A stretch of 64,000 nucleotides of DNA from Escherichia coli (GTDB taxonomy: Bacteria; Pseudomonadota; Gammaproteobacteria; Enterobacterales; Enterobacteriaceae), in NCBI RefSeq assembly GCF_041248615.1, contig NZ_CP158426.1. One strand, 5' to 3'. Each line of letters begins with the position of its first letter. Positions within the stretch are counted from its first letter, which is position 1. Position numbers and translations under genes: made by a program. The notes under the pieces are model-generated. The model searched no databases. It had not been told where the DNA came from and worked only from the letters and a program-made list of their open reading frames with translations. This document shows positions 17,683-18,234 of the stretch, one piece after another.

Positions 17683-18061
17683 TGTCAACAACTCGCATGG
17701 TTTTAAATATAAAATTTAAAAAACCGCCAAACAAATGAAGTGAAATTTCATACTTCTTTGCCTTATAAACAATTACCGCATCTTTAATATTACCTGCATT
17801 TTGGTTATCTATAAGTTCAGCAATATCCATAACCTGCGATAAATGTTCCACTCCCGTAAACTCGAACCTTTTTCGTTCCCTTCCGGCTGTAAATTCATCA
17901 ACATAAAGTTCTGCCGTCAATATAAAATTATACTCGGTGTGGTGACATTCCATTCTGGTTTCTACTAAAACACCATCATGCCAGATAATATTGTCTAAAT
18001 TTTTCATACTATTAATCCAATCCATTACTTTCTGATAAAATTTCCTCTGGAAGTTTTTCAT
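17669..18061 (-). CDS. hypothetical protein (130 aa), AT-rich islet gene
   Basis: Track ORF with ATG start and in-frame stop 3 codons upstream; no obvious SD; no family recognised. Confidence 0.5.
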   Translation of the reverse strand: MKNFQRKFYQKVMDWINSMKNLDNIIWHDGVLVETRMECHHTEYNFILTAELYVDEFTAGRERKRFEFTGVEHLSQVMDIAELIDNQNAGNIKDAVIVYKAKKYEISLHLFGGFLNFIFKTMRVVDNEFE

Positions 18062-18234
18062 AGAAAGAGATTAAAGCCTGACCGACGCAATCAAGCTCTA
18101 TTATTCGCTCATAATACGATCTCATTAAAATATCATGCTTACTCATTGCAATACGTCCTGTTTACCATGGGCAGAGTATGAATGTAACTTATGTAAAATA
18201 GTACCGCCCTTGCTATTTTTCAGAATTCATAAAG

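Follow-up and report, generated by a model that had tools for sequence, protein, structure and literature searches.

Among bacterial leader peptides and regulatory upstream open reading frames (ORFs), trpL, tnaC, and ermCL are established examples, and translationally coupled gene pairs, including pairs of the trp operon, rely on termination-reinitiation at close or overlapping stop and start codons. Short coding stretches also enter the databases as pseudogene fragments, to which PGAP attaches the label 'incomplete; partial in the middle of a contig; missing C-terminus'. In Rhs systems, sequences diverge past the DPxGL motif, rhsI lies directly downstream of the Rhs gene, and orphan Rhs modules are common (Poole et al. 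2011, PMC3150448). The 44-codon frame described here shares features with each of these.

The frame lies in the window, a 64,000-nt stretch of Escherichia coli DNA (NCBI RefSeq assembly GCF_041248615.1, contig NZ_CP158426.1), bases 17200-18300 of which are 100% identical to E. coli NRZ14408 (NZ_LT599825). With a probability of about 0.88, we read it as the decayed remnant of the first gene in a small islet that lies between hrpA and ydcF, is rich in AT, and was acquired horizontally. The GC content of the islet is 35-39%, compared with ~52% in its flanks. It was found in 586 of 5,426 complete E. coli genomes, most genomes matching only the hrpA end of the query, and gene 1 of the islet occurs among these 586 either as a long allele (335 genomes, O157:H7 type) or as a short one (251 genomes). 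Synteny was retained in both alleles, the gene order being hrpA, gene 1, gene 2, gene 3, gene 4, ydcF. Apart from genes 1 and 2, the islet and its surroundings in the window comprise the following features.

18292..22194, minus strand: hrpA (ATP-dependent RNA helicase), a 1300-aa ORF annotated hrpA in the identical genome NZ_LT599825; conserved, upstream of the islet.
18235..18267, minus strand: intrinsic terminator of hrpA, a hairpin with a U-run, from the fold of 18275..18228.
17233..17682, minus strand: islet gene 3, 149 aa (RefSeq CDS; tblastn), sharing its first 14 nt with the end of gene 2.
17052..17113, minus strand: 5' fragment of islet gene 4, about 21 codons, from comparison with the uninterrupted locus L004.
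15738..17051, plus strand: IS1414 (IS256 family), 1314 bp, a 402-aa transposase ORF annotated IS1414, which splits gene 4.
15413..15737, minus strand: 3' fragment of islet gene 4 (ORF list, L004 comparison, tblastn).
14497..15297, minus strand: ydcF (DUF218), from the ORF list and RefSeq annotation; conserved, downstream of the islet.

The fold of the hrpA terminator (18275..18228) reached -17.2 kcal/mol (z = -4.9), and none of 200 shuffled sequences was equally stable. Since hrpA ends in a terminator, the islet genes need either read-through or a promoter of their own; a promoter scan upstream of the 44-codon ORF found no sigma-70 consensus. The Rfam family Leu_leader matched the hrpA terminator at 19.5 bits, below its gathering score of 50; the match was taken as chance.

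The preliminary description had picked out an ATG at 18146, preceded by AGGA, as the start of a 44-codon minus-strand frame ending inside a 130-codon ORF read in another frame. Both observations were borne out: the AGGA is 9 nt from the ATG, the frame ends at 18012, and in the ORF list the two frames overlap by 47 coding nt plus the stop. The parts of the frame and of the gene that follows it are as listed, all on the minus strand.

18156..18159, minus strand: Shine-Dalgarno (SD) AGGA of ancestral gene 1, 9 nt before ATG 18146, kept by the stub.
18012..18146, minus strand: the 44-codon ORF (the stub), very probably a truncated allele of islet gene 1, from ATG 18146 through MSKHDILMRSYYERIIELDCVGQALISFYEKLPEEILSESNGLD to TAA at 18014..18012.
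18042..18146, minus strand: codons 1-35 of the stub, colinear with codons 1-35 of the 141-aa gene and with the same limits as the RefSeq pseudogene.
18015..18041, minus strand: junction segment of 27 nt, of uncertain origin, aligning only in fragments past its first 9 nt (MAFFT and pairwise alignments).
18008..18014, minus strand: stop TAA (18014..18012) and 4-nt spacer TAGT, forming the TAATAG(C/T)ATG stop-start junction that the intact allele also has.
18008..18061, minus strand: over-extension of gene 2, 18 N-terminal codons, nonconserved (ORF list and homologue alignment).
17669..18007, minus strand: islet gene 2, the '130-codon gene' at its true length of 112 aa (RefSeq CDS WP_001523214; start ATG 18007).

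The predicted duplex of the SD at ATG 18146 with the 16S 3' end is -5.0 kcal/mol, among the best ~11% of ATGs in the window, and is the same in the intact O157 allele. A length of 44 codons is by itself within chance, 58 ORFs of at least 30 aa being present in the surrounding 6 kb. What sets the frame apart from random ORFs is homology: its first 35 codons correspond to the beginning of a real gene. That gene, a 141-aa coding sequence (CDS; WP_000086434), is intact in strain 135 and the O157:H7 group, where it is read from this SD, with an identical spacer, and this ATG and stops 4 nt before the 112-aa CDS of gene 2 (in strain 135, the last base of gene 1 is at locus position 4580 and the first of gene 2 at 4585). 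A tblastn comparison of stub codons 1-35 with the 141-aa gene aligned 35 of 35 codons colinearly, at 83% amino-acid identity (E = 7e-16). RefSeq has the interval 18146..18042 of the identical genome as a pseudogene feature ('hypothetical protein', 'incomplete; missing C-terminus'), and the three further short-allele genomes inspected are annotated alike.

The stub is already flagged by RefSeq as a pseudogene fragment, the outcome of ordinary gene decay, and does not belong to the class of upstream ORFs or leaders. Unlike the frame itself, the PGAP label stops at codon 35, omitting both the continuation open to the ancestral stop and the kept junction with gene 2. The dedicated upstream ORF suspected in the preliminary description is not supported, the frame being what is left of the N-terminal end of a 141-aa gene. 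Among other copies of the islet, to which that description had looked for conservation of the 44-codon frame, the frame is the same, or nearly so, in the 251 complete short-allele genomes, the hrpA 3' ends of these backgrounds differing by up to 12%, and the other 335 have the 141-aa gene intact.

In MAFFT and pairwise DNA alignments, the 141-aa allele exceeds the short one in length by a net 291 nt (97 codons), in frame. At 44 codons, against 141 in E. coli and 170-192 in remote members of the family, the stub has lost most of the coding sequence. The DNA alignments are colinear over codons 1-35, and homology resumes at the TAATAG(C/T)ATG junction. Between the two, the first 9 nt of the junction segment, ATTTTATCA (18041..18033), are a colinear, in-frame match to codons 43-45 (ILS) of the long allele, which suggests that gene 1 suffered more than one deletion. 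The net loss being of 97 whole codons, the frame is still open to the ancestral stop.

In the sequence of events that we propose, the SD and ATG 18146 would originally have opened a 141-aa gene stopping 4 nt before gene 2. The net loss of 291 nt would have left codons 1-35, three colinear codons, and a few junction codons, in a frame that happens to remain open to the ancestral stop. The stub would in this way keep the ancestral ribosome-binding site and stop-start junction and may pass ribosomes to gene 2, any such hand-on being a by-product of ancestry rather than the work of a dedicated regulatory ORF.

The hrpA-ydcF islet decays differently by lineage, as comparison of eight loci showed.

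Window: gene 0 absent; gene 1 a 44-codon stub; genes 2 and 3 intact; gene 4 split by IS1414.
L002 (O157 type): gene 0 absent; gene 1 intact, 141 aa; genes 2, 3, and 4 intact.
L003 and L026 (short allele): gene 0 absent; gene 1 a 44-codon stub; genes 2, 3, and 4 intact.
L005: gene 0 present; gene 1 intact, 141 aa; gene 2 intact; gene 3 frameshifted; gene 4 intact.
L007: gene 0 present; gene 1 frameshifted (130 aa); gene 2 intact; gene 3 mostly deleted; gene 4 intact.
L009: gene 0 present; gene 1 full length; gene 2 intact; gene 3 frameshifted; gene 4 present, running off the contig end.
L019: gene 0 absent; gene 1 absent; gene 2 intact; gene 3 absent; gene 4 a remnant with an in-frame stop.

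Gene 2 is the sole islet gene found intact in all eight. Gene 0 encodes a 285-aa protein with DUF7021 and DUF2262, and a literature search on DUF2262 found nothing. In the databases, gene 1 is represented by forms of 141 aa and 130 aa, by frameshifted forms of 83, 51, and 45 aa, and by gene1-gene4 fusions, the 130-aa form arising from a frameshift at codon 127 that places its stop 38 nt before gene 2. In the window, the IS1414 insertion is flanked by an apparent 9-bp target duplication, with breakpoints taken from the comparison with L004.

Of the alternatives to gene decay, the one that survives best, although it is unlikely, holds that the stub was exapted for coupling, being kept open because its translation loads ribosomes onto the poorly marked start of gene 2. 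Retention of the stub in frame as such a translational 'on-ramp', keeping gene 2 expressed after loss of its partner gene, is equally doubtful. The anatomy is that of a coupled pair, with a stop-start spacing of 4 nt, as in the ancestor, and a predicted SD duplex of -5.0 kcal/mol for the stub against a mediocre -3.9 for ATG 18007 in the window and -2.7 in the O157 allele. The 14-nt overlap of genes 2 and 3 is typical of a packed operon, the net deletion is in frame, and the 42 variants of the stub peptide in the databases are all 44 aa long, bar one 28-aa partial. The likeness to coupled pairs is nevertheless one of anatomy only, since gene 2 persists intact in lineages lacking the junction: a gap of 38 nt separates it from the gene-1 stop in L007 and the widespread 130-aa alleles, and L019 has no gene 1, so coupling is not obligatory for gene 2. 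Furthermore, no RNA structure hides the start of gene 2 (z = -0.9), the in-frame outcome has a prior of 1 in 3, and a 135-nt frame is expected to stay open without selection at 1-2% divergence. The stub is probably still translated, judging from its SD and start codon. Because the ancestral SD and 4-nt junction are kept, the SD of gene 2 is mediocre, and gene 3 overlaps gene 2, a contribution of the stub to gene-2 translation by termination-reinitiation is plausible, if somewhat improbable.

As a separate observation, selection on translation through to gene 2 could yield an open, in-frame stub as well as chance could, the latter at odds of 1 in 3 for a single deletion.

Comparison with leader peptides leads away from a regulatory role. 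Like them, the stub is short, has an SD of its own, and immediately precedes a gene, here gene 2. Unlike them, it has no attenuator or alternative hairpin, and its peptide is not conserved as a unit: homologous loci have a gene of 130-192 aa in its place, or nothing. Folding around the two starts gave no regulatory RNA structure (z = -0.9 and -0.03), an Rfam search returned no family above threshold, and the ORF contains one terminator-like match where 0.8 are expected by chance.

That the 44-aa product is a functional small protein, for example a mini-immunity protein or a regulatory peptide, is very improbable, although SD and ATG are present, several pipelines call the gene, and the exact peptide stands in public databases as a 'hypothetical protein' on >1,000 contigs. 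For the family fold, AlphaFold modeling of the E. coli 141-aa allele from a shallow alignment gave a pLDDT of 56, and the model of a 180-aa relative, built on a deeper alignment, was used instead; it predicts a HEAT-like helical repeat, a 12-helix solenoid. Of the twelve helices, the stub spans the first two and about half of the third and therefore would not form the family fold; on this model, it most likely has no protein function. At positions that vary little or not at all among full-length alleles, the stub has replacements (K3, M8, Y11, Y12, L18, C20). Short alleles fall into three main haplotypes with two nonsynonymous (K3R, S40N) and no synonymous differences in 135 nt, and rare variants add H4Y, R9S, E13A, L32H, and E34V, so that all stub polymorphisms seen are nonsynonymous. 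Differences this few give little power to the synonymous-site comparison that the preliminary description had proposed. Between alleles, pN/pS was 0.3-0.9 for both gene 1 and gene 2, a comparison of low power from which the L009 gene-1 rows were left out. The RefSeq label of pseudogene also argues against a functional product, as do the database searches for the stub and the full-length gene given below.

The preliminary description had further remarked that the 130-codon gene lacks an obvious SD and that the real gene structure might differ from the track, and in both it was right. The 130-codon ORF (18061..17669, minus strand) is a mechanical longest-ORF call, and the predicted SD duplex at its ATG 18061 is a poor -2.5 kcal/mol. 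The Met at 18007, Met19 of the 130-codon form, is invariant in all homologues aligned, down to 64% identity, whereas the extension upstream of it varies in sequence and length by allele, reading MKNFQRKFYQKVMDWINS, MVTYLRIVNS, or none. The true gene is therefore 112 codons long, as RefSeq also calls it. With gene 2 starting at ATG 18007, there is no overlap, and 4 nt separate it from the 44-codon frame. ATG 18061 is not present in the L005 and L007 alleles; from the alignments, it is an out-of-frame gene-1 triplet that the deletion put into the gene-2 frame. On this evidence, a true gene of 130 codons, with the 44-codon frame as noise or as a second gene overlapping it in another frame, is very improbable, even though some pipelines call products of 130 aa (188 contigs) or 118 aa (423 contigs).

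To place the ancestral gene 1, we turn to its family. Pfam gave no significant family for islet proteins 1-4 (with the 44-aa stub as protein 1) or for remote gene-1 relatives, and NCBIfam and PADLOC had no match for the four islet proteins (with full-length gene 1). In PHROGs, the best result for the four was a marginal gene-4 match of unknown function (E = 3.7e-4), and a match of gene 1 to SieB was nonsignificant (E = 0.066). No PDB entry matched gene 0, gene 2, or the gene-1 profile in sequence searches. A gene-1 profile search of 1.8 billion representatives recovered 30 relatives, most of them 170-192 aa long. The remote relatives run about 55 aa past the C-terminal end of the E. coli alleles, indicating that the 141-aa E. 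coli form is itself C-terminally truncated.

Elsewhere, members of this family sit behind Rhs toxin domains. In the metagenomic locus L018, a 1405-aa Rhs protein (RHS_repeat, YD-shell, RHS) has a DPLGL motif with 137 C-terminal residues beyond it; one family member begins 15 nt downstream of its gene, and a second (P0024) ends a downstream array of DPxGL-containing fragments. The arrangement recurs in L014 and L015, where 46 nt lie between a toxin tail, again opening with DPLGL, and the start of a 33%-identical member; the tails of L018 and L014/L015 are 70% identical. In L021, member P0032 belongs to an array of genes all pointing one way, together with a C-terminal deaminase fragment (Deam_C) and DUF6911 and DKNYY genes. 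Genomic contexts of P0023, P0025, P0026, and P0027 were short or uninformative. Searched under the name of E. coli, no matching toxin tail was found; the tail occurred in five clusters, all metagenomic.

The gene-1 homologues thus occupy the position of RhsI, directly downstream of an Rhs C-terminal domain past DPxGL, and, like orphan copies in toxin/immunity module arrays, they also occur as extra copies among small unrelated genes (P0024 in L018, P0032 in L021). Because the family stands behind Rhs toxin domains elsewhere, it most likely comprises Rhs immunity proteins, and from gene position in three metagenomic loci we infer that the ancestral gene-1 family probably had this role. The 44-codon ORF was also considered as an orphan toxin C-terminal fragment ahead of an immunity gene, which was rejected, as it is homologous to the immunity-position gene and not to a toxin.

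The E. coli islet resembles Rhs toxin-immunity arrays in being a set of small AT-rich genes, here toxin-less, that are gained, lost, and broken by lineage. It differs from them in that no rhs, cdi, or T6SS gene adjoins it, its neighbors being hrpA and ydcF, and in that its gene-1 copies lack the last ~55 residues, the window copy being down to 44 codons. The E. coli copies of gene 1 are most likely orphan immunity genes, truncated at the C-terminus. The hrpA-ydcF islet may be a free-standing poly-immunity island, with gene 1 representing an unannotated HEAT-like Rhs-immunity family.

For annotation, the consequences are a '130-codon gene' corrected to 112 codons and an 'upstream ORF' that is an annotated pseudogene fragment and holds no regulatory novelty. 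A modest side result is a HEAT-like family with no Pfam, NCBIfam, or PADLOC model, whose members follow a rare Rhs toxin tail, where an immunity gene would be expected. These data suggest that the islet of O157:H7 and of the window lineage is a decaying set of orphan immunity genes, and offer a hypothesis for four 'hypothetical proteins' carried by about 11% of complete E. coli genomes.

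Gene 2 of the islet (112 aa) was compared at eight loci, comprising the window (17669..18007), the O157-type locus L002, the short-allele loci L003 and L026, and four other islet loci (L005, L007, L009, and L019). It was the sole islet gene intact at all eight, and at L019, where it is 64% identical, it is still intact though its neighbors are gone or broken. This unique persistence suggests continuing selection on gene 2, as the single islet gene still subject to it. No family was detectable for gene 2, and homologs were found at the hrpA-ydcF locus only.

Gene 4 is interrupted in the window by an insertion sequence:

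15738..17051, IS1414, a 1314-bp element of the IS256 family, apparently flanked by a 9-bp target duplication
17052..17113 and 15413..15737, the two halves of islet gene 4, separated by IS1414

The insertion breaks gene 4 at approximately codon 21. With gene 4 broken, two of the four islet genes are inactivated in the window. In the short-allele genomes L003, L004, and L026, gene 4 is uninterrupted. Some Escherichia coli assemblies encode fusion proteins (database proteins P0016 and P0018, 126 and 132 aa) in which the ~95 N-terminal residues encoded by gene 1 are joined to ~30-40 C-terminal residues from gene 4. The fusions imply deletion of genes 2 and 3, which would represent a further independent route of islet decay.

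The short-allele islet was also compared between loci L024-L027 and the window (18012..19191). It was nearly unchanged, with zero to two differences in the 44-codon ORF and one to three in the 145-nt spacer, while the last 900 nt of hrpA in those backgrounds differed from the window by 4 to 12%. One peptide variant of the 44-codon frame carries the source-database label Escherichia fergusonii. Recombination seems to have moved the islet, with the deletion already present, between divergent Escherichia backgrounds. In L004 (strain HYM1), the sole difference from the window across spacer and ORF is A to T at 18156, the last Shine-Dalgarno base (AGGA to AGGT). The 44-codon frame also contains one terminator-like site:

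18072..18100, minus strand, hairpin with a 13-pair stem (4 of them G-C) and a T-rich run after it

This hairpin is probably due to chance, because the region yielded a single site of this kind compared with 0.8 expected from shuffles.

Other Escherichia lineages carry an additional 285-aa gene between hrpA and gene 1, which neither the window nor O157:H7 has:

L005 2005..2862; L007 2017..2874; L009 207..1064

The gene encodes DUF7021 and DUF2262 domains, with a weak DUF6985 match, and is followed by a strong inverted repeat. A literature search found no publication on DUF2262, and searching the PDB by sequence gave no match for the 285-aa protein.

Members of the gene-1 family were also found beside a rare Rhs C-terminal toxin tail:

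L018 1..1532 and 6001..6564; L014 1..1057

The tail has the pattern DPLGLYN..KC.SI..RIENLEKEIW.. and ends in a hydrophobic stretch of ~40 residues. Pfam holds no family for this DPLGLYN-type tail, only five database clusters contain it, and the next gene encodes a HEAT-like member of the gene-1 family, 192 aa long. Together, the two constitute a candidate new toxin/immunity pair, and the hydrophobic end of the tail suggests that the toxin may act on membranes.
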